From sequence record OZ470804.1: a stretch of DNA of 64,000 bases; one strand, written 5' to 3'. This document shows positions 30,307-39,508 of this stretch, one piece after another (position 1 is the stretch's first letter; each line of letters opens with the position of its first letter). The notes below the pieces were generated by a model that saw only the letters and a program-made list of their open reading frames with translations, did not search any database and was not told the origin of the DNA. This stretch comes from a phage. Made by a program: the position numbers and the translations under genes.

Positions 30307-31188
30307 ATGAAAACATCTATCCGTGTTATAATTCATTCACCGACAAAAGGGTCTCATGAAGAAGAGTTTAACATCATCCAGTTCCCTTCTGGTGAGATTG
30401 GTGGACACTTTTCACAAGAGCTTGTTGACTTTACTGCTCACGCAGCATCATCCATCAACAATGTGATTATGATTGTAAAAGGCTATGATAAAGACACATT
30501 GTTTGCTGTGGCACTTGCTAAAGAAGCAATTGATGATTTAGTTCCTCATGAATATGCCTTAAAGACTGTCATCTTTTACTACTTACCAAATGCACGATAT
30601 GACCGTCACATGTTTAAAGGTGATGCAGCAGCTTTGAAGGTTTTTGCTAAACAGGTTAATGCAATGGGGTTTGGTGCGGTCTGTGCAGTTGACCCTCACA
30701 GTTATGTGCCAGATAACCTGTTTAACTGCTTCCAAAGTATTCCTCAAAATGAAATTGCAGTCCACTATGCAAATGACCCACTGGTTGATTACTTAGTAGC
30801 CCCAGATGCAGGTGCTTCTAAGAAGATTGCAGAGACTGCTAAAGAGGTGGATAAACCATACATCACAATGTCTAAAGTACGTAACCTTCAGACTGGTGAA
30901 ATTACTGGTATGCGAATCCTTGATGATGTGGATTTGACAGATAAAACTGTCATGATTCTTGATGATATCTGTGATGGTGGTCGAACCTTCATAGAAGCAG
31001 CTAAACATCTTCGTGAAGCAGGTGCAAAACGTGTGGAACTCTATGTAACACATGGTATCTTCTCTAAAGGTGTTGAAAACCTTCTTGACAATGGTATTGA
31101 CCACATCTACACTACAAACTCTTTAGGGGAAGCTAAAGACCGTGGTTTAACACATTATGGTCAAGTTACTGTAGCAAACCTTGATTAA
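30307..31188 (+). CDS. ribose-phosphate pyrophosphokinase (Prs) family protein; candidate ADPR-pyrophosphate synthetase
   Basis: PRPP-binding loop VMILDDICDGGRT and HGIFS flexible-loop motif. Confidence 0.7.
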   Translation: MKTSIRVIIHSPTKGSHEEEFNIIQFPSGEIGGHFSQELVDFTAHAASSINNVIMIVKGYDKDTLFAVALAKEAIDDLVPHEYALKTVIFYYLPNARYDRHMFKGDAAALKVFAKQVNAMGFGAVCAVDPHSYVPDNLFNCFQSIPQNEIAVHYANDPLVDYLVAPDAGASKKIAETAKEVDKPYITMSKVRNLQTGEITGMRILDDVDLTDKTVMILDDICDGGRTFIEAAKHLREAGAKRVELYVTHGIFSKGVENLLDNGIDHIYTTNSLGEAKDRGLTHYGQVTVANLD

Positions 31189-31197
31189 AACTTTATA

Positions 31198-31218
31198 GGG
31201 GGCTTTTAAGCCCCATTT
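31198..31218 (+). terminator. intrinsic terminator / attenuating hairpin
   Basis: GGGGCTTTTAAGCCCC hairpin followed by ATTTT. Confidence 0.5.
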
Positions 31219-31235
31219 TGAGAGAGATTAAAAAG

Positions 31236-33017
31236 ATGACTAAATCACTTTATGCAGTGCCAGCAGGTTTAAACGCAGATGCTTACAAATCTGGTCACAT
31301 TTACCAGTACCCTAGTGCAACAGAGTACTTAATGTTTAACCTGACACCACGTAGTGACAAATGGTTTAACAGTCCCTTAGCAATTGATGGTGTAGTTGCT
31401 TTTGGTATTCAACGTTTTGTTAAAGATTACTTGATAGACCACTGGAACGCCACCTTTTTTGAACGTGACAAAAAAGAAGCAATTGATGAAATCTTAGAAG
31501 TCATGAACGGTGTTCTGGGTAAAGATGCTATTGGTCGAGAGCATTGGGAAGCACTTCATGACTTGGGTTATCTACCAGTTGAAGTATACGCTGTAGAAGA
31601 AGGAACAGTTGTCCCTATGCGTGTACCAATGGTTGTCTTCCAGAACACTGTTTCAGGTTTCCATTGGGTAGCGGGGTATCTGGAAGATGCTTTCTCTGCT
31701 GAGATTTGGAAGGCTTGTACCATTGCAACTATTGCATTGCACTACAAACGTATCTGTAAGAAGTGGGCTGACCTTACTTGTGACAACGACTTGCATTTAC
31801 CTTATCAGTGCCATGACTTTGCTATGCGTGGTATGTCCGGCTTTACTGATGACGCATTTAACGCTGTAGGCCACTTAACCAGCTTTAAAGGGACTGATAG
31901 CTTCCCTGCTGTATATACAGCTAAACGCATCTACGGTCAGTCCTACCCAATCTCTGATATTGGTAGCTCTGTACCAGCCACTGAACACTCTGTAATGTGT
32001 GCAAACATTGCTTGGGAAGGTGGTAATGAGTTGATTGAAGAAGAAAGACGCTTCAAAGGTGAGTTACAAACCTTCCGTCGCTTCTTAACAGAAACTTACC
32101 CAACTGGTATTGCAAGTGTTGTTTCAGATACTTATAATTTCTGGAGAACTGTATCAGTCATATTGCCAGAACTCCGTAAAGAGATTATGGAACGAAATGG
32201 CAAACTGGTAATTCGTCCTGATTCTGGAGACCCTGTACATATTGTCACAGGTTATAAAGCAATTCACTTAGAGTGTGCTAAAAAGGCTTATTATGAACAC
32301 CTAAGCAAGCTGGAAGCCAGCGACACAATGTTGAATGCTGTTCTGAACATGAAGCTTGAAAACATCAATTATGGTATTGCTGGATGGCTACTGTTAGAAG
32401 GCTATGAGATGGTTGTTGACAGAGAAGACTTTGAAGTTGCTGATACAGTGATGTTGAAAAATGCTTATATGGTTGGTTCTGCAAACGTTGTAACACGTCC
32501 TGTAGCAGAGATTGATGGAGCTATTAAGACCCTGTATAACATCTTTGGAGGGACTATTAACTCTAAAGGTTTTAAGGTACTGGATGAGCACATTGGCCTT
32601 ATTTATGGCGACTCTATCACGTTGGAACGTGCAAATGAAATACTGAAGCGTTTGTATGAAATGGGTTTTGCAAGCTCTAACGTAGTGTTTGGTGTAGGTT
32701 CTTACACTTACCAGTACATGACTCGTGACACCTTTGCATTTGCTGTCAAAGCAACCCTTGCAAGCATTGGTGGTAAAGAGATTATGCTTGCAAAAGACCC
32801 TAAAACAGATAGTGGTGTTAAGAAGTCTGCTTTTGGTGGTGTAGCACCTATGTGGGATGGTGAAAATCTGAAAGCTGTAGATGGCTATGGGTTCCAGAGC
32901 TTTGCAGATGCACTTGAACATCCAGCTTGTGCTTTACGTCTAGTCTTTAGCGACTCTGAGCAGTTCGGCTACACAACTCTTGGTGATATTCGAAATAATA
33001 TTGACAAGCAGCTTTAA
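31236..33017 (+). CDS. nicotinamide phosphoribosyltransferase (Nampt) family protein; candidate Namat
   Basis: ADAYKSGHIYQYP, SSVPATEHSVM and IRPDSGDP motifs match Nampt; about 100 aa longer than typical Nampt. Confidence 0.7.
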   Translation: MTKSLYAVPAGLNADAYKSGHIYQYPSATEYLMFNLTPRSDKWFNSPLAIDGVVAFGIQRFVKDYLIDHWNATFFERDKKEAIDEILEVMNGVLGKDAIGREHWEALHDLGYLPVEVYAVEEGTVVPMRVPMVVFQNTVSGFHWVAGYLEDAFSAEIWKACTIATIALHYKRICKKWADLTCDNDLHLPYQCHDFAMRGMSGFTDDAFNAVGHLTSFKGTDSFPAVYTAKRIYGQSYPISDIGSSVPATEHSVMCANIAWEGGNELIEEERRFKGELQTFRRFLTETYPTGIASVVSDTYNFWRTVSVILPELRKEIMERNGKLVIRPDSGDPVHIVTGYKAIHLECAKKAYYEHLSKLEASDTMLNAVLNMKLENINYGIAGWLLLEGYEMVVDREDFEVADTVMLKNAYMVGSANVVTRPVAEIDGAIKTLYNIFGGTINSKGFKVLDEHIGLIYGDSITLERANEILKRLYEMGFASSNVVFGVGSYTYQYMTRDTFAFAVKATLASIGGKEIMLAKDPKTDSGVKKSAFGGVAPMWDGENLKAVDGYGFQSFADALEHPACALRLVFSDSEQFGYTTLGDIRNNIDKQL

Positions 33018-33031
33018 AAGTATATGATAAG

Positions 33032-33054
33032 AGGCTCCTACGGGAGCCTTTTTA
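33032..33054 (+). terminator. intrinsic terminator
   Basis: AGGCTCC-TAC-GGGAGCCT followed by TTTTT. Confidence 0.7.
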
Positions 33055-33070: not shown

Positions 33071-33406
33071 ATGAAAATCAAAGAAATGAACATCAACATT
33101 GTCTTAGAAGAACGCTGGGAGAACATCAAGAAGCCTGAAAATGGTCATAAGTTCCTCAACAAAATCTTAGTAGCAGCTAAAGAAGAACTGACTGGCAAGG
33201 TTGCAGCAGCAATCACAATAAAGGTGTGTGTAAAGGGTCTTCCAGACAATCACCAATTTGCACTTGACGAGTTTAAAGAAAGCTTCTACAATCCAAACAA
33301 ACAGATGCTTGAAAGTAACTTTGCAGTGTCTACAAGTATCGTCCATGACAGAAGCTTTATCCTTTACAAGAATATGAGAGGTGAGTCATGCAAGCATATT
33401 GGATAG
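33071..33406 (+). CDS. hypothetical protein
   Basis: 111 aa ORF. Confidence 0.45.
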   Translation: MKIKEMNINIVLEERWENIKKPENGHKFLNKILVAAKEELTGKVAAAITIKVCVKGLPDNHQFALDEFKESFYNPNKQMLESNFAVSTSIVHDRSFILYKNMRGESCKHIG

Positions 33407-33564
33407 AAATTTTACTGTCACTTGGTAGTGTAGCAGTATTTGTCTACCTCCTTTGCAAGTACTTTGCAGAGCACAAAAAATGTGACTACTGTAATGGAGA
33501 GGGGTACATAATGGCAGGATGTTGCCCTATGTGTGGTGGTTCTGGTAAAATGTTTAATAAGTAA
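33388..33564 (+). CDS. membrane-anchored zinc-ribbon mini-protein (58 aa, not in ORF track)
   Basis: MQAYWIEILLSLGSVAVFVYLLCKYF then CDYCNGEG..CPMCGGSG. Confidence 0.4.
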   Translation: MQAYWIEILLSLGSVAVFVYLLCKYFAEHKKCDYCNGEGYIMAGCCPMCGGSGKMFNK

Positions 33565-33592: not shown

Positions 33593-35959
33593 ATGCGCAT
33601 GGTAAACGACCACGCAGAAGTGATTAAGAGTTCAACTTCTTTAGAGACGTCTCAAGCACAGATTACAATGACACCTGAAATGTTCAGCCTTTTGAGTTCT
33701 GGTGTATATACCTTTAAAGAAAGGGCAGTGATTCGTGAACTGTCATGTAACGCAGTAGATGCTCAGAAAGAAGCTGGAAAAGAGAATATCCCGTTCCATG
33801 TGCATTTACCTACTCGTTTTGAGCCTTACTTTGAAGTCCGTGATTTTGGAACTGGATTGACTCATGACAAAGTAATGAGTTTGTATCTGAACTATGGGGC
33901 TTCTACGAAGAATGACTCTAATGATTACATTGGTGCAATGGGTATCGGCTCAAAATCCCCATTTGCAATTGCTCAGTCATTCACAGTGTCTAGCTATGTT
34001 GATGGTGTTGTTAATAAGTACTCTGTTTACCTTGAGAATGGTATCCCTCAAGTAACTAAGCTGACTACCAACCCAACAAAGGAACCTAATGGCTTAGCTG
34101 TACGTGTAGCAGTTGCTGACCATCGTATCTCAAAATTCTTTGAAGAAGCTGGTCACGTATACTCATACTTTTCTGTAAAACCAGAGAGTAATGTGGAGTA
34201 TAATGATATATTAGCAGATATGGATGTGATTGCTCGTGAAGAAGGTGTCTATGATGCCATGACTCATAAGCATAGCTGGCGTTCAAGCAGCAATAGAACA
34301 GAGTTTAACGTGGTTATGGGCAATATTGCCTACCCAGTTAATATGGAGGCATTACTTGGTGATGATTTCTTCAAAGTATTACCAGAATTTTTCCGCAGGA
34401 GCATAGACCTTGTAAACATCTACATGCCTATTGGTTCAGTTGCTATTGCAGCTTCTCGTGAAGCATTGCAGATGAATGACACGACAAAAAATGTTATCAT
34501 CGAGGCTACTAAAAAGATAACTGAAGCAATTACAAAGGATGTTATCAAGAAAGTTAATAGTCAACCTACACTCATGGATGCTGCACAGGCTTATGCTGAG
34601 TTACGCTTGAACTCACGAGAGATGTTTAATGTTGTGTGTCCAAAGCTAGAGTGGGGAGGTGTTAAGCTTGATTCTCTGGAAGAAGAATTACTAAACATTC
34701 GTCGTGGAATTATCTACGCAGAGGACGGCTCAGTCATCTATGAACGTGACGGCAAAGGTAATATTAAGGTTGACAGTAAAGGAAACAACATTCCTAAAGT
34801 GGACTACCTATACAATCCAGTTGCTTATGTTAAGTTCAACTCTTTAGAGAGTAAGATTCGTGCAACAGCACTTTCCTACACTCAAGAGGCGAGCATGTTC
34901 AATATCTTTGGTGCAATGCGTAAAAGCCAAATTGAACAGTTTTTGTTCGTGATTAATGACCGTCGCAATAAAAACGGTACTGAAAAGACTGTAGGCCGCA
35001 ATCAGATTCTGCGTGGTGCATGTCGAGACTACGCCAGTGAGTCAAGTCTGTTTCACAGATATAATGGTATTGTGTTTGTATTCTCGACTGAAAAAGAGTT
35101 AGACGACCTAATCAATCTACACAAACTTGATAAAAGCTTGTTAAAGATTGTGAAGATGTCTGATAAGGAACATCACTATCAGCGTAAAGAAGCTGTAAGG
35201 GGTGTTGTAAAACTCTGGAAAGCTGTTCCAGCAGAAGGTGTAGCTTCCTATAAAGAGGTTTCAGAGGACTTCGATACAATTGAAGAACCTCAGCTTTACA
35301 TTAAGGCAGTTGGTGATACAGTTGATGGCGAATGTTTTTGCTCATCTCCAGAAGATGTAGCCAAGTCAGTTGCTAATGTTACAGGGAAGACAGTCTATGT
35401 TTTCCGAAAAGCAAATTGGAAAAAGATACCAGAAGACTGGATTGAAGTAGATGAGAAGCTCTTGAACGACAGCTTAACTGATGTTCACTGGATTAATCAT
35501 AACAGGTATATGACACGTATCTATATGAATGGTGTTCTTGACCTTACAAGCAGTTGGATTATCGCCAGAAACTTTACATTCAATAACAGGAAGATTTCTC
35601 GTGGTTATTGCTATTCACGAGATACTAACAAAACTATCTTCCTAGAAGGCAATGAAGATGCTGTAGAGGCAATGTTCGGTAAAATCCAATACGTTGCTGC
35701 ACCATTTGCATACACTTATACTGTTAGTGTATTGAAAACTTTGAAAGACTGTCTTGACAATGATACAAAGCTTTACAAGAAAATTAAGAAAGCTGGTGAC
35801 CGCATGGTCATTAAGGTGACAAACTACCTTTCAAAAAGAAAACAAGAAAACTTCTTGCTTTCTCATTTAGATTGGAATAAAGTGTCACCTATCGAAGTGA
35901 GTAAGTTCTTAGGCTTTGATGTGAAGTGTGTTCCAGAAGGGACTACAATTTACGATTAA
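33593..35959 (+). CDS. rIIA-like protein with N-terminal GHKL ATPase domain
   Basis: Bergerat-fold motifs RELSCNAVDA, VRDFGTGL and GAMGIGSKS; 788 aa; followed by a co-transcribed partner. Confidence 0.55.
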   Translation: MRMVNDHAEVIKSSTSLETSQAQITMTPEMFSLLSSGVYTFKERAVIRELSCNAVDAQKEAGKENIPFHVHLPTRFEPYFEVRDFGTGLTHDKVMSLYLNYGASTKNDSNDYIGAMGIGSKSPFAIAQSFTVSSYVDGVVNKYSVYLENGIPQVTKLTTNPTKEPNGLAVRVAVADHRISKFFEEAGHVYSYFSVKPESNVEYNDILADMDVIAREEGVYDAMTHKHSWRSSSNRTEFNVVMGNIAYPVNMEALLGDDFFKVLPEFFRRSIDLVNIYMPIGSVAIAASREALQMNDTTKNVIIEATKKITEAITKDVIKKVNSQPTLMDAAQAYAELRLNSREMFNVVCPKLEWGGVKLDSLEEELLNIRRGIIYAEDGSVIYERDGKGNIKVDSKGNNIPKVDYLYNPVAYVKFNSLESKIRATALSYTQEASMFNIFGAMRKSQIEQFLFVINDRRNKNGTEKTVGRNQILRGACRDYASESSLFHRYNGIVFVFSTEKELDDLINLHKLDKSLLKIVKMSDKEHHYQRKEAVRGVVKLWKAVPAEGVASYKEVSEDFDTIEEPQLYIKAVGDTVDGECFCSSPEDVAKSVANVTGKTVYVFRKANWKKIPEDWIEVDEKLLNDSLTDVHWINHNRYMTRIYMNGVLDLTSSWIIARNFTFNNRKISRGYCYSRDTNKTIFLEGNEDAVEAMFGKIQYVAAPFAYTYTVSVLKTLKDCLDNDTKLYKKIKKAGDRMVIKVTNYLSKRKQENFLLSHLDWNKVSPIEVSKFLGFDVKCVPEGTTIYD

Positions 35960-35964
35960 AGTGT

Positions 35965-35994
35965 TTGACAAGGGGCTTCAAAACCCCTTAGAAT
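35965..35994 (+). promoter_or_regulatory. sigma70-type promoter with spacer hairpin
   Basis: TTGACA-18 bp-TAGAAT; spacer contains GGGGCTTCAAAACCCC palindrome. Confidence 0.55.
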
Positions 35995-36038
35995 AGCATC
36001 ACAAAATGATTTATTAACTAACAAGAGAGAGTAATAAG

Positions 36039-37148
36039 ATGACTACCAAAACTAAAGCACAGATTGACGCAGAAATTTACAAACTGGTTAAAGAAGGTAA
36101 GTTGACTAAAACAGCTATTGCACAGAAATTTAATACTTCAACCCGTTCAGTCGGTCGTGCTGTAGAGCGTCATGAAGCAACCTTAAAAGGGAATAAGAAG
36201 GCAACTTCTACACCAGCTACGAAGACTTTGAAGCAAGTTGCTAAGACCTTTAAAAAGAAAGCTGACAAACCAGTTGAAAAGGTTGTTAAAGATGCTGTAC
36301 AGAAAGCTCCGGTAAATAAACTGCATGAAGCTATGCAGAAAGATGACAAGATTGAGTACATGATTACTGGTGACTCTGTAATTATGACTTATGGTTCAGA
36401 ATCTGAAATTGTTGAGTCTACTCATCCGAACTATCAAGAGATTGTAGTTCATGTTGTGAAAGGTGAGTTCAAAAAAGCCTTTGAATTGATGAACATTCGT
36501 AAGTCTATCGAAAACTTCACTCAGGGCGCTATCACAATCAAAGGTGACAAGTTATTCTACGGTGCTGTTGAGATGCGTTCTACTCTGGTTGACCGTATTC
36601 TTCACATGATGAAGACTGGAGATAAAGGTTTCGAACGCCTTGTGATGTTCTTCGAAAAACTGATGGAAAACCCATCTAAAGACTCTGTAGAACAACTTTG
36701 GGGCTTCGTATCTCACCTTGATGTTGAAATTGATGAAGAAGGCTACATCATTGGTTGGAAGAAAGTATCTACTCGTGAAGGCAAGCTGGTTGACTCCCAC
36801 ACCTACAGAGTACCTAATGATTTGGGTAACATTGTAGAAATGCCACGTTGGATGGTTGATAATAACCGTAACGTGACTTGCTCTCAAGGTCTTCATGTTG
36901 GTGCTTGGGATTATGTTCGTTGCTTCTCAGGTGATACAATTCTGAAGGTTCGTGTCCATCCACGAGACGTTGTATCCGTACCAACTGATTACAACGATAT
37001 GAAGATGCGCTCGTCTCGTTATGAAGTTACAGCAATCGTTGATAATCAACGTAAAGTACTGAAAGCATGGGATGGCAAGACTGAAGCTTTGCATGTCATC
37101 GTTGGCACTGCTGGGGAACTTATCTCTCAGCGTAAACGTGAAATCTAA
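36039..37148 (+). CDS. rIIB-like protein (putative)
   Basis: 369 aa ORF immediately downstream of rIIA-like gene; assignment by context only. Confidence 0.35.
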   Translation: MTTKTKAQIDAEIYKLVKEGKLTKTAIAQKFNTSTRSVGRAVERHEATLKGNKKATSTPATKTLKQVAKTFKKKADKPVEKVVKDAVQKAPVNKLHEAMQKDDKIEYMITGDSVIMTYGSESEIVESTHPNYQEIVVHVVKGEFKKAFELMNIRKSIENFTQGAITIKGDKLFYGAVEMRSTLVDRILHMMKTGDKGFERLVMFFEKLMENPSKDSVEQLWGFVSHLDVEIDEEGYIIGWKKVSTREGKLVDSHTYRVPNDLGNIVEMPRWMVDNNRNVTCSQGLHVGAWDYVRCFSGDTILKVRVHPRDVVSVPTDYNDMKMRSSRYEVTAIVDNQRKVLKAWDGKTEALHVIVGTAGELISQRKREI

Positions 37149-37164
37149 TAAGTAATTTCTTAAA

Positions 37165-37188
37165 AGGCTGCTTCGGCGGCCTTTTTTA
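37165..37188 (+). terminator. intrinsic terminator
   Basis: AGGCTGCTTCGGCGGCCT followed by TTTTTT. Confidence 0.7.
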
Positions 37189-37248: not shown

Positions 37249-37797
37249 ATGAAGAAATTGATTCTAGGTTTGTGCTTAATGTTTACAGCACACTTATCTT
37301 ATGCAGTTGACTGCCCAGAGCTATCAATTAGCCAAAAAGTAAACATGTTAAAAGCTTACCAGTATGGTGAGAATAACATGGGTAAAGGTTGGGGTATCAC
37401 TCTAGCTGCTATAGCCTTACAAGAGTCAGAGTTAGGTCTGAAGGTAGAGAATAAAAAGACCCATGACTATGGTATCTTCCAGAATCACTTGAAGACTGTT
37501 GTAAAGCGTAACAAAATTAGTCCTAATGTGGCTAAAAAGAAACTCTTAAAAGACTTTGACTATGCTGCGAAGGAAACTCACAAAGAGCTTGAGTTTTGGA
37601 CAAAGGTGCATGGTCAGCCAAAGTCAAAGAAGACTTTACAAAAAGTTTTAGCATCATATAATGCTGGGTATTCGTACAGAATCCCTAAAGCTAAGAAATA
37701 TTCTCAAGATGTCTATAACAACATGAAAGTTATTGCTCAATGTGAATTTGCAACAAACATTTCTAAGGTAAACCATGAAAAAATTAAAAAAGTCTGA
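37249..37797 (+). CDS. secreted protein, possible lytic transglycosylase
   Basis: signal peptide MKKLILGLCLMFTAHLSYA; ALQESELG..YGIFQ resembles the SLT catalytic motif. Confidence 0.4.
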   Translation: MKKLILGLCLMFTAHLSYAVDCPELSISQKVNMLKAYQYGENNMGKGWGITLAAIALQESELGLKVENKKTHDYGIFQNHLKTVVKRNKISPNVAKKKLLKDFDYAAKETHKELEFWTKVHGQPKSKKTLQKVLASYNAGYSYRIPKAKKYSQDVYNNMKVIAQCEFATNISKVNHEKIKKV

Positions 37798-38470
37798 TGA
37801 AGTACTGTGTCATGCTTACGACTTACATCCTCATGAGTTAGGTCTTGATTCCTGTGTATGGACTCCAGAACAGTGTAGGGATTTTGAAGACACTGCAAGA
37901 GAAGTTGTATGTTCACTCGAAGAGTTCCACACATCAGAACCAATTGTGAATGTTGTAGATAAAGAGACTGGACAAACTATAGGTGTAAGTCGTGATAGCT
38001 TAGTCATAGTCAATAAAGACCTTGTAGAAAAAGGGAATCTCATCTTAGCAGATATTGATGGTGTTCTTACAAATTTTAATCACGAAGATTGTTCAACGGA
38101 ATTGACTGACGGTTCATTCTCGCAGTACACTAATCTTCTTGACTCTGTAAGAGCAAAACCAACGTATGTTTTCAATATCATTGATGCAATTGCTAATCAT
38201 GCTGCTGTTGGACTCTTGACAGCGAGAGGTGAATCTCAGAGAATACCTACTGAGATGTTTTTAAGGCATAACACAGAGCATGACTACATGCTTTTTATGC
38301 GTGGTTTTGGGACTAACTCTATAAGCGCAGAAAGTTTGAAAGTGAGGATGATTCAGTCTTGCATTCTGCCTTACTTTAATATAGTATGTTTTATAGAAGA
38401 CACAGAGAAGAATGTGCAGAAGGTGAACAGAATCCTTCCACACATTAAAACCATGTTAGTTAAACATTGA
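37775..38470 (+). CDS. hypothetical protein
   Basis: 231 aa ORF. Confidence 0.5.
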   Translation: MKKLKKSDEVLCHAYDLHPHELGLDSCVWTPEQCRDFEDTAREVVCSLEEFHTSEPIVNVVDKETGQTIGVSRDSLVIVNKDLVEKGNLILADIDGVLTNFNHEDCSTELTDGSFSQYTNLLDSVRAKPTYVFNIIDAIANHAAVGLLTARGESQRIPTEMFLRHNTEHDYMLFMRGFGTNSISAESLKVRMIQSCILPYFNIVCFIEDTEKNVQKVNRILPHIKTMLVKH

Positions 38471-38997: not shown

Positions 38998-39345
38998 ATG
39001 ACATTTAAAGAGTTCTGTCAAGCTACTTTCATAATTGTTTTCTTAGTTGGTGCAGGTGTCTGGGGAGGATACTCTTACAGAGACTACCAAGTTGCTGAAA
39101 CTGAGCTAAATAATGAGAAGCTGATAAGTGTTGCTAAAGATGCTTATCAGGAAGGATTAGTCACACTGAGCACCAATTACAAAAATGATTTGAAAGATGT
39201 GCTTGCTAAGAATAAGCATACAAAAGAGGTACTAACATATGAAAAAACTAAGCCAGAGTTTTATAATGTTTGTGTTACTGATAACTATGTCAGGGTGTTC
39301 AACGAACAAAGTGAGCAGTACATTCAAAAACTCCCAAGTAAGTGA
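38998..39345 (+). CDS. i-spanin-like protein (Rz-like)
   Basis: N-terminal transmembrane helix then charged helical region; AGGAGA RBS. Confidence 0.4.
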   Translation: MTFKEFCQATFIIVFLVGAGVWGGYSYRDYQVAETELNNEKLISVAKDAYQEGLVTLSTNYKNDLKDVLAKNKHTKEVLTYEKTKPEFYNVCVTDNYVRVFNEQSEQYIQKLPSK

Positions 39346-39508
39346 GAGTGATAAGTACACTCAAGAAGAATCACGGTATATCATCAAAGGTAACACAGGC
39401 AGTGATGTAGCAGCAGCCCTTGAGTTCTATCGTGACGGCTTTTACCAGTGCACAATCAAAGCTAACAACCTTATTGACATGATTTTATTAGGGAATAAGC
39501 AGCAATGA
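39239..39508 (+). CDS. o-spanin-like lipoprotein (Rz1-like)
   Basis: starts inside 3' end of previous gene in another frame; lipobox LITMSGC. Confidence 0.4.
   Translation: MKKLSQSFIMFVLLITMSGCSTNKVSSTFKNSQVSESDKYTQEESRYIIKGNTGSDVAAALEFYRDGFYQCTIKANNLIDMILLGNKQQ

Follow-up and report, generated by a model that had tools for sequence, protein, structure and literature searches.

The genes rIIA and rIIB of a Felix O1-like phage, a probable two-gene counter-defence module

The rII locus and its source phage

Within a 64,000-nucleotide stretch of phage DNA from sequence record OZ470804.1 (the window), two consecutive plus-strand open reading frames (ORFs), separated by a 79-nt spacer, encode proteins of 788 and 369 amino acids (aa), here referred to as rIIA and rIIB. 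Both ORFs had been called in a first-pass annotation made from the sequence alone, and their lengths and positions proved exact (Table 1). That annotation described the longer product as a GHKL ATPase resembling rIIA of the T-even phages, named its downstream partner rIIB on the basis of position, and proposed that the pair has a role in exclusion or defence evasion.

At the DNA level, the 4.8 kb that surround the pair share 97.3% identity with Escherichia phage Andreotti and 95-97% with many Felixounavirus records, and it is this level of identity that places the source phage among the Felix O1-like myoviruses (Ounavirinae, Felixounavirus). Each of 211 records spans at least 80% of the 4.8-kb query, and wherever these are annotated the features there are rIIA and rIIB. 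Among phage records, 2926 have rIIA-like and 2911 rIIB-like matches, with counts per host genus that agree. The arrangement, with both genes on one strand and rIIA directly upstream of rIIB, is also seen in T4, which supplied the founding members of both families, in Bas63 (Escherichia phage JohannRWettstein, MZ501086), a Felixounavirus whose record annotates bas63_0084 as rIIA and bas63_0085 as rIIB, and in phiSUSP1 (SUSP1; KT454805), a Suspvirus and thus a member of another genus within the Ounavirinae.

Table 1. Features of the rII locus and of its surroundings, in window coordinates
Feature	Position	Strand	Basis or remark
rIIA gene (788 aa)	33593..35959	+	ORF; phrog_612; identity to Bas63, SUSP1 and T4 proteins; near-identical records annotate it as rIIA
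rIIA Bergerat-fold (GHKL) ATP-binding domain, ~aa 25-175	33665..34117	+	motifs I-III
rIIA motif I, E49/N53/D56 (ELSCNAVDA, aa 49-57)	33737-33763	+	
rIIA motif II, D84-x-G86-x-G88 (DFGTGL, aa 84-89)	33842-33859	+	
rIIA motif III, G114/G117/G119/K121 (GIGSKS, aa 117-122)	33941-33958	+	
rIIA second domain, 'transducer/middle' of GHL-type ATPases, ~aa 176-325	34118..34567	+	
rIIA SRExL loop, S288-R289-E290-x-L292	34454-34468	+	within second domain
rIIA C-terminal region, ~aa 326-788	34568..35956	+	Felix O1-like clade-specific
Promoter-like site for rIIB, TTGACA-18-TAGAAT, sigma-70-like	35965..35994	+	scan, 11/12 matches, consensus match only
GC hairpin, AAGGGG-loop-CCCCTT	35970..35989	+	fills gap between -35 and -10 of the rIIB promoter-like site
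rIIB gene (369 aa)	36039..37148	+	ORF; phrog_609, phrog_3803; identity to T4, Bas63 and SUSP1 proteins; PF26926 on homologues
rIIB N-terminal helix-turn-helix domain, ~aa 6-51	36054..36191	+	
rIIB linker rich in Lys/Ala/Thr, aa 53-91, predicted to be disordered	36195..36311	+	pLDDT <50; 14 Lys in aa 46-100
rIIB conserved core, ~aa 94-369	36318..37145	+	
Terminator-like hairpin and T-run directly 3' of rIIB	37162..37185	+	scan: 10-bp stem, 5 GC pairs, then TTATTT; consensus match only
Ribose-phosphate pyrophosphokinase-like gene (Prs)	30307..31188	+	phrog_619, E 5e-97
Nicotinamide phosphoribosyltransferase gene (NAMPT)	31218..33017	+	phrog_448, E 3e-202
Promoter-like site at 3' end of NAMPT, TTGACA-16-TATGAT	33001..33028	+	
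Terminator-like hairpin with T-run, 3' of NAMPT	33029..33052	+	
58-aa ORF upstream of rIIA	33388..33564	+	counterpart bas63_0083
Gene after rIIB (182 aa)	37249..37797	+	phrog_600 (unknown function)
Pnk	37775..38470		
i-spanin, by position	38998..39345	+	counterpart bas63_0089
o-spanin, by position	39239..39508	+	counterpart bas63_0090
Block of 22 tRNA genes	58065..63555	+	

Family identity and architecture of rIIA

Among the PHROGs, rIIA is matched best by phrog_612, annotated 'RIIA' (E 6.7e-189), with aa 1-770 aligned on profile positions 1-716 of 725, and six more RIIA PHROGs match it with E-values of 1e-22 to 1e-54. Comparison with T4 rIIA (NC_000866) by BLASTP covered aa 24-317 at 31% identity (E 4e-37), and a profile built from 81 rIIA homologues was aligned with the T4 protein by hhalign at a probability of 100% (E 6e-56), over aa 1-328 only. 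Identity is 97.2% to gp84 of Bas63, which is likewise 788 aa long, and 63% over the full length to the considerably diverged rIIA of SUSP1; in a large protein collection the precomputed Pfam accession PF13589 is present on many rIIA homologues. These matches assign rIIA to the phage RIIA family, and the earlier description of an rIIA-like GHKL ATPase is borne out.

The three motif strings cited in support of that description (ELSCNAVDA, DFGTGL and GIGSKS) are present, forming an N-terminal GHKL (Bergerat) domain with intact nucleotide-binding motifs. In the alignment of 81 homologues, whose identity to the query goes down to 22%, E49, N53, D56, D84, G86, G114, G117, G119, K121, R289 and E290 are invariant, and because of this the motifs are regarded as family-defining positions and not as chance strings. 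Since the alignments are 250-311 residues long, the similarity spans the ATP-binding fold together with a second domain. In GHL-type ATPases this second ('transducer' or 'middle') domain senses the gamma-phosphate. An AlphaFold2 model built from the alignment has a mean pLDDT of 88.1. The N-terminal part of rIIA is an ATPase module in two domains, of the kind found in gyrase, Hsp90, MutL and MORC.

The rIIA profile retrieved N-domains of TRAP1/Hsp90 from the PDB (E 2e-5), where a search with the single sequence found no match, and aligned with aa 16-182 of Escherichia coli HtpG by hhalign (probability 94.5%, E 7.8e-8), the alignment ending at HtpG residue 182 without reaching the middle domain. 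NCBIfam matches were below threshold and comprised a model of the HSP90 family (aa 30-134, E 2.9e-11) and the sacsin ATP-binding domain. Membership of the Hsp90 family (TRAP1, HtpG, Grp94) was rejected, as the match to PRK14083, in the N-terminal part only, scored 42.5 bits where the cut-off is 455, and the three domains of the N-M-C architecture were not found together, the Hsp90 C-terminal dimerisation domain being undetected in rIIA. The ATPase module is thus built like that of the Hsp90/GHL type in a protein that lies, by these scores, outside the Hsp90 family.

A short loop in the second domain also invites comparison with Hsp90. Next to the invariant R289-E290, S288 and L292 are nearly invariant, and the string AASREALQ of rIIA corresponds to APSREALS in T4 rIIA and to NVSREILQ around R336 in HtpG. 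In Hsp90 biochemistry the arginine of SRExL is a catalytic-loop residue in contact with ATP. By this motif-level comparison, R289 might be its equivalent.

The likeness to rIIA of the T-even phages is limited in extent. The homologous part comprises the N-terminal ~310 aa, or ~40% of the protein, with all GHKL motifs and the SREAL loop, so this part of the earlier comparison stands; it does not extend to the C-terminal ~460 aa, which have no similarity to the C-terminal ~400 aa of the 725-aa T4 protein by BLASTP or hhalign. Of the 120 listed rIIA homologues, just 37 (P0001-P0037) align along 97% or more of the query, and therefore the C-terminal region is considered specific to the Felix O1-like clade. 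An N-terminal GHKL domain followed by a C-terminal domain that varies greatly is the usual architecture of the family (Iyer et al. 2021, PMC7824862). PADLOC returned a match of rIIA to TmtA by the GHKL domain only and nothing for rIIB, and identification as a defence-system gene was rejected.

Family identity and architecture of rIIB

The naming of the partner, which had depended on its position, is now backed by sequence. Five RIIB PHROGs match the protein, namely phrog_609 (E 8.4e-89), phrog_3803 (1.1e-49), phrog_36818 (2.1e-34), phrog_2886 (9.2e-30) and phrog_11221 (1.4e-25), and BLASTP against T4 rIIB gave 42% identity over 261 aa (aa 81-339, E 3e-60). In tblastn searches the rIIB genes of T-even phages were found at 35-38% identity with 88-89% of the query covered, identity is 82.3% to gp85 of Bas63 (368 aa) and 79% over the full length to SUSP1 rIIB, and the precomputed Pfam accession PF26926 is carried by nearly all listed homologues. 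The protein is by these matches a member of the RIIB family. A hidden Markov model search against the rIIA and rIIB families, which the first-pass annotation had suggested and which was run here along with BLAST, thus placed both proteins where it had expected them.

The phrog_609 'RIIB' profile itself has 1055 positions, of which 31-299 are matched by rIIA of the window and 755-1048 by rIIB. It appears to derive in part from fusions or concatenations of rIIA with rIIB, a make-up that can lead to rIIA genes being mislabelled rIIB.

In an AlphaFold2 model of rIIB (pLDDT 84.2) a three-helix N-terminal domain (aa 6-51) is followed by a disordered linker and a confident alpha/beta core. An N-terminal helix-turn-helix (HTH) followed by a conserved C-terminal core is the layout of the RIIB family, and the 312-aa T4 rIIB aligns across both parts; Pfam HTH families match about 20 of 104 rIIB homologues. 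The Lys-rich linker varies in length within the genus and is longer than that of T4 rIIB, from which the protein further differs by a C-terminal extension of ~30 aa. Within the core G235, V273, C281, G284 and P308 are invariant and H286, D310, D317, K322 and R324 nearly so, and all invariant columns of the family fall within aa 204-328. Searches of the PDB yielded noise with the single sequence and weak HTH matches with the profile; the core is of a fold without a solved structural relative. No transmembrane helix was predicted in either protein, the maximum Kyte-Doolittle value over 19-residue segments being 1.31 for rIIA and 0.69 for rIIB.

Within Felixounavirus rIIB varies far more than rIIA does. 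Identity to Bas63 is 82% for rIIB and 97% for rIIA, and tblastn identities fall in bands of 80-99% for rIIB and nearly all of 95-99% for rIIA. The ~18% of rIIB positions that differ from Bas63 gp85 cluster in three patches: aa 41-120, which include the linker, aa 241-280 and the tail at the C-terminus (aa 321-369). This variability may result from diversifying pressure, with some defence systems sensing rIIB.

Function of the rII genes in related phages

The requirement for the rII genes is known from orthologues to be conditional: in SUSP1 and Bas63 they are dispensable on naive hosts and needed on hosts carrying RexAB and QatABCD, respectively. In the PhageMaP study, deletion of g84 or g85 of Bas63, a co-essential pair on such hosts, caused a 10^4-10^5-fold drop in plating on a host carrying QatABCD that was largely complemented (bioRxiv 10.1101/2024.10.10.617714). 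CRISPRi-ART knock-down of rIIA or rIIB in T4, MM02, EdH4, SUSP1 and N4 lowered plating on hosts carrying lambda RexAB, and the same knock-downs were without effect on Rex-free hosts (PMC11879866). HIDEN-SEQ has likewise shown T4 rIIA and rIIB to be conditionally essential with RexAB (bioRxiv 10.1101/2025.11.20.689424). Wein et al. found T6 RIIB, expressed by itself, to be toxic in E. coli and sufficient to trigger a gasdermin/CARD system of Lysobacter (bioRxiv 10.1101/2023.05.28.542683); therefore, rIIB can itself be what a defence senses. By analogy with Bas63 and SUSP1, these genetics lend support to the exclusion or defence-evasion role that had been proposed for the pair.

The PhageMaP text gives a homology of '>80%' between the Bas63 proteins and T4 RIIA/B; BLASTP here gave 32% for rIIA, along 306 aa, and 36% for rIIB, figures that indicate a homology that is real but distant.

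With regard to kinds of systems there is no novelty in the pair. It counts as already known because near-identical public genomes annotate rIIA and rIIB and the genetics have been done in a phage of the same genus (Bas63) and one of the same subfamily (SUSP1). Every family feature that can be assessed in silico was found, and both genes are by this measure the ordinary rIIA and rIIB of a Felix O1-like phage.

Gene neighbourhood and transcription signals

The surroundings of the pair are also shared. In the window, Bas63 and SUSP1 the genes are ordered Prs, NAMPT, small ORFs, rIIA, rIIB, an ORF and Pnk, the exceptions being small ORFs and a homing endonuclease located between Prs and NAMPT in SUSP1. 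The Bas63 counterparts of Prs and NAMPT (g79 and g80) act against Sir2-HerA, and in part against retron Ec86 and hhe, through restoration of NAD+, and together Prs, NAMPT, rIIA, rIIB and Pnk look like a counter-defence neighbourhood.

Adjoining rIIA upstream is a 58-aa ORF with a strongly hydrophobic segment at its N-terminus (aa 5-23, Kyte-Doolittle 2.11) followed by two CxxCxGxG motifs, which are signatures of DnaJ-type zinc fingers (Pfam DnaJ_CXXCXGXG, below cut-off at E 9.5e-4). The ORF is also conserved in Bas63, and the SUSP1 version has one canonical motif. The position of a predicted membrane-anchored DnaJ-like zinc finger beside an Hsp90-like ATPase is suggestive. Identity of this ORF with T4 rIIA.1 was rejected, as the latter is unrelated and has neither cysteines nor a hydrophobic segment. 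The gene after rIIB has a signal-peptide-like N-terminus and a sub-threshold match to SLT transglycosylase (E 9e-4), and some records label it 'putative lysin'; further downstream, two overlapping ORFs correspond by position to the spanins of Bas63. The distant block of tRNA genes is consistent with the annotated tRNA blocks of Bas63 and SUSP1.

The 79-nt spacer contains a candidate promoter for rIIB. The first-pass annotation had credited the partner with its own promoter, and a sigma-70-like site with 11 of 12 consensus positions was indeed found and is kept, with its hairpin, in Bas63 (8-bp stem) and SUSP1; it is a candidate by consensus match. The hairpin would be present in transcripts reading through from rIIA and absent from those begun at the promoter-like site. 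When all TTGAC[AT]-N16-19-TAxxxT sites on both strands of the window were scanned, one other five-pair stem was seen, on the minus strand in a coding region, and with no second copy the notion of a repeated hairpin-in-promoter cassette was rejected. At the 3' end of NAMPT a near-consensus promoter-like site abuts a terminator-like hairpin; upstream transcripts could end there, and those started at the promoter would hold only part of the hairpin.

A probable counter-defence module and its possible mode of action

The most satisfactory explanation is that rIIA and rIIB constitute a counter-defence module of two genes, which the phage can do without on naive hosts and which enables growth in cells with certain abortive-infection systems, and we regard this as very probable. 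The mechanism is a far more tentative matter, and the one we prefer, at rather less than even confidence, is that an ATP-driven rIIA clamp and its rIIB partner act before the defence sensor is activated. In this scheme rIIA would dimerise as a clamp, as other GHL ATPases do, rIIB would recruit or partner it through the HTH and the basic linker, and the two would work on nucleic acid or a nucleoprotein intermediate on the membrane's inner face, keeping the infection signal from activating the sensor without inhibiting any single defence protein. Because one module defeats two unrelated systems, RexAB and QatABCD, a target common to both is favoured over inhibition of a single defence protein, be it an infection signal lying upstream or a physiological consequence that they share.

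A more specific proposal, which we consider doubtful, is that rIIA is a phage offshoot of the Hsp90-type branch of GHKL proteins acting with rIIB on the shared upstream signal. Here the N and middle domains would form a clamp that retains the catalytic-loop arginine of SRExL, and rIIB would contribute its HTH and a conserved core that includes Cys281/His286. If true, this would explain how the unrelated RexAB and QatABCD are defeated while gasdermin/CARD systems sense the module, and the choice of systems evaded or triggered would lie with the clade-specific C-terminal domain of rIIA and the rapidly changing patches of rIIB.

Several points weigh against the counter-defence reading or its mechanism. 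The plating genetics come from relatives only, and, with rIIB just 82% identical to the Bas63 protein, specificity could differ. In the Pfam-A copy searched no family exceeded the cut-off for rIIA (HATPase_c E 0.22), and in this copy, which does not include PF26926, rIIB had weak HTH matches only. ATP hydrolysis by rIIA is predicted from fold and motifs, as are DNA binding by rIIB and contact between the two proteins. The SRExL match may be convergent, since the similarity to Hsp90 detected by hhalign does not reach the middle domain. Moreover, the classical view and the PhageMaP authors put rII action at the membrane, as a 'membrane integrity protector' (bioRxiv 10.1101/2024.10.10.617714), and the present data are as compatible with action at the membrane as with action at the level of the trigger.

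This last possibility is the most serious competitor. The rII proteins would then work further downstream, where they keep up the ion balance or potential of the cytoplasmic membrane after a pore or channel effector such as RexB (or, as proposed, QatB) has opened, and the trigger would not be hidden. T4 rII proteins fractionate with the membrane, and database notes in the T4 and Bas63 records carry the protector label. RexAB has been described as acting through membrane depolarisation (PMC11879866; bioRxiv 10.1101/2025.11.20.689424), and the same logic was extended to QatABCD by the PhageMaP authors (bioRxiv 10.1101/2024.10.10.617714), for whom a membrane role of QatB is a proposal only. Against this, neither protein has a predicted transmembrane segment, and a GHL-type ATPase clamp with an HTH is typical of machines that handle nucleic acids or client proteins and not of membrane stabilisers. 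It is because the recognisable domains are DNA- or client-handling that prevention of activation is slightly favoured, and downstream protection of the membrane is judged possible though unlikely. A further suggestion is that rIIB is chiefly a transcription factor tuning phage gene expression and rIIA the ATPase that partners it, with abortive infection resisted indirectly, through changes in timing or expression. It draws on the resemblance of the rIIB HTH to sigma region 4 and to the DNA-binding domains of DeoR and LuxR, and on the listing of rIIB among phage transcription factors by Iyer et al. 2021 (PMC7824862). It is improbable, as plating is unaffected by knock-down or deletion where no defence system is present, the conservation of the family lies in the C-terminal core and not in the HTH, and the toxicity of T6 RIIB and its triggering of the gasdermin system occur without any phage genome (bioRxiv 10.1101/2023.05.28.542683).

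Database nomenclature suggests a different function, that of a lysis-timing module, by virtue of the PHROG category 'lysis' and the product name 'RIIA/RIIB lysis inhibitor', and by Bas63 synteny spanin genes do lie ~2 kb downstream (38998..39508). The name is however historical and refers to the rapid-lysis plaque phenotype. Holin, antiholin and endolysin features, as well as signal and transmembrane segments, are missing from both proteins, the endolysin gene of Bas63 lies elsewhere (bas63_0123), and in five phages there was no plating phenotype in the absence of RexAB (PMC11879866), which makes a role in lysis timing very improbable. Least credible of all is the notion that the 788-aa protein is some other GHKL enzyme (MORC-like, a topoisomerase, MutL-like or a true Hsp90) with an unrelated gene downstream, a contrary case that the first-pass annotation had itself named in terms of MORC, topoisomerase and a partner without rIIB similarity. 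The likeness to MORC, SMCHD1, MutL and type II topoisomerase is a distant one of fold, limited to the ATPase module; rIIA gave no Pfam, NCBIfam or PHROG match to MORC, type II topoisomerase or MutL, and membership of these families was rejected for want of sequence-level signal and of accessory domains (CW or coiled coil; Toprim; the S5-MutL or MutL C-terminal endonuclease part), just as the Hsp90 score and the undetected Hsp90 C-terminal domain speak against a true Hsp90. At the sequence level RIIA is by far the best family, and the partner is unambiguously rIIB.

Implications for Felix O1-like phages

With the assignment of the two genes as an rII counter-defence module settled, the one scientific question touched upon is the 70-year-old puzzle of how the rII proteins work, for which the observations on folds and motifs made here offer hypotheses and not answers. 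Together with the upstream Prs and NAMPT genes for NAD+ salvage, the rII genes form part of the anti-defence repertoire of the phage, and they are thus of relevance to host-range prediction for Felix O1-like phages in the typing and therapy of Salmonella and E. coli.

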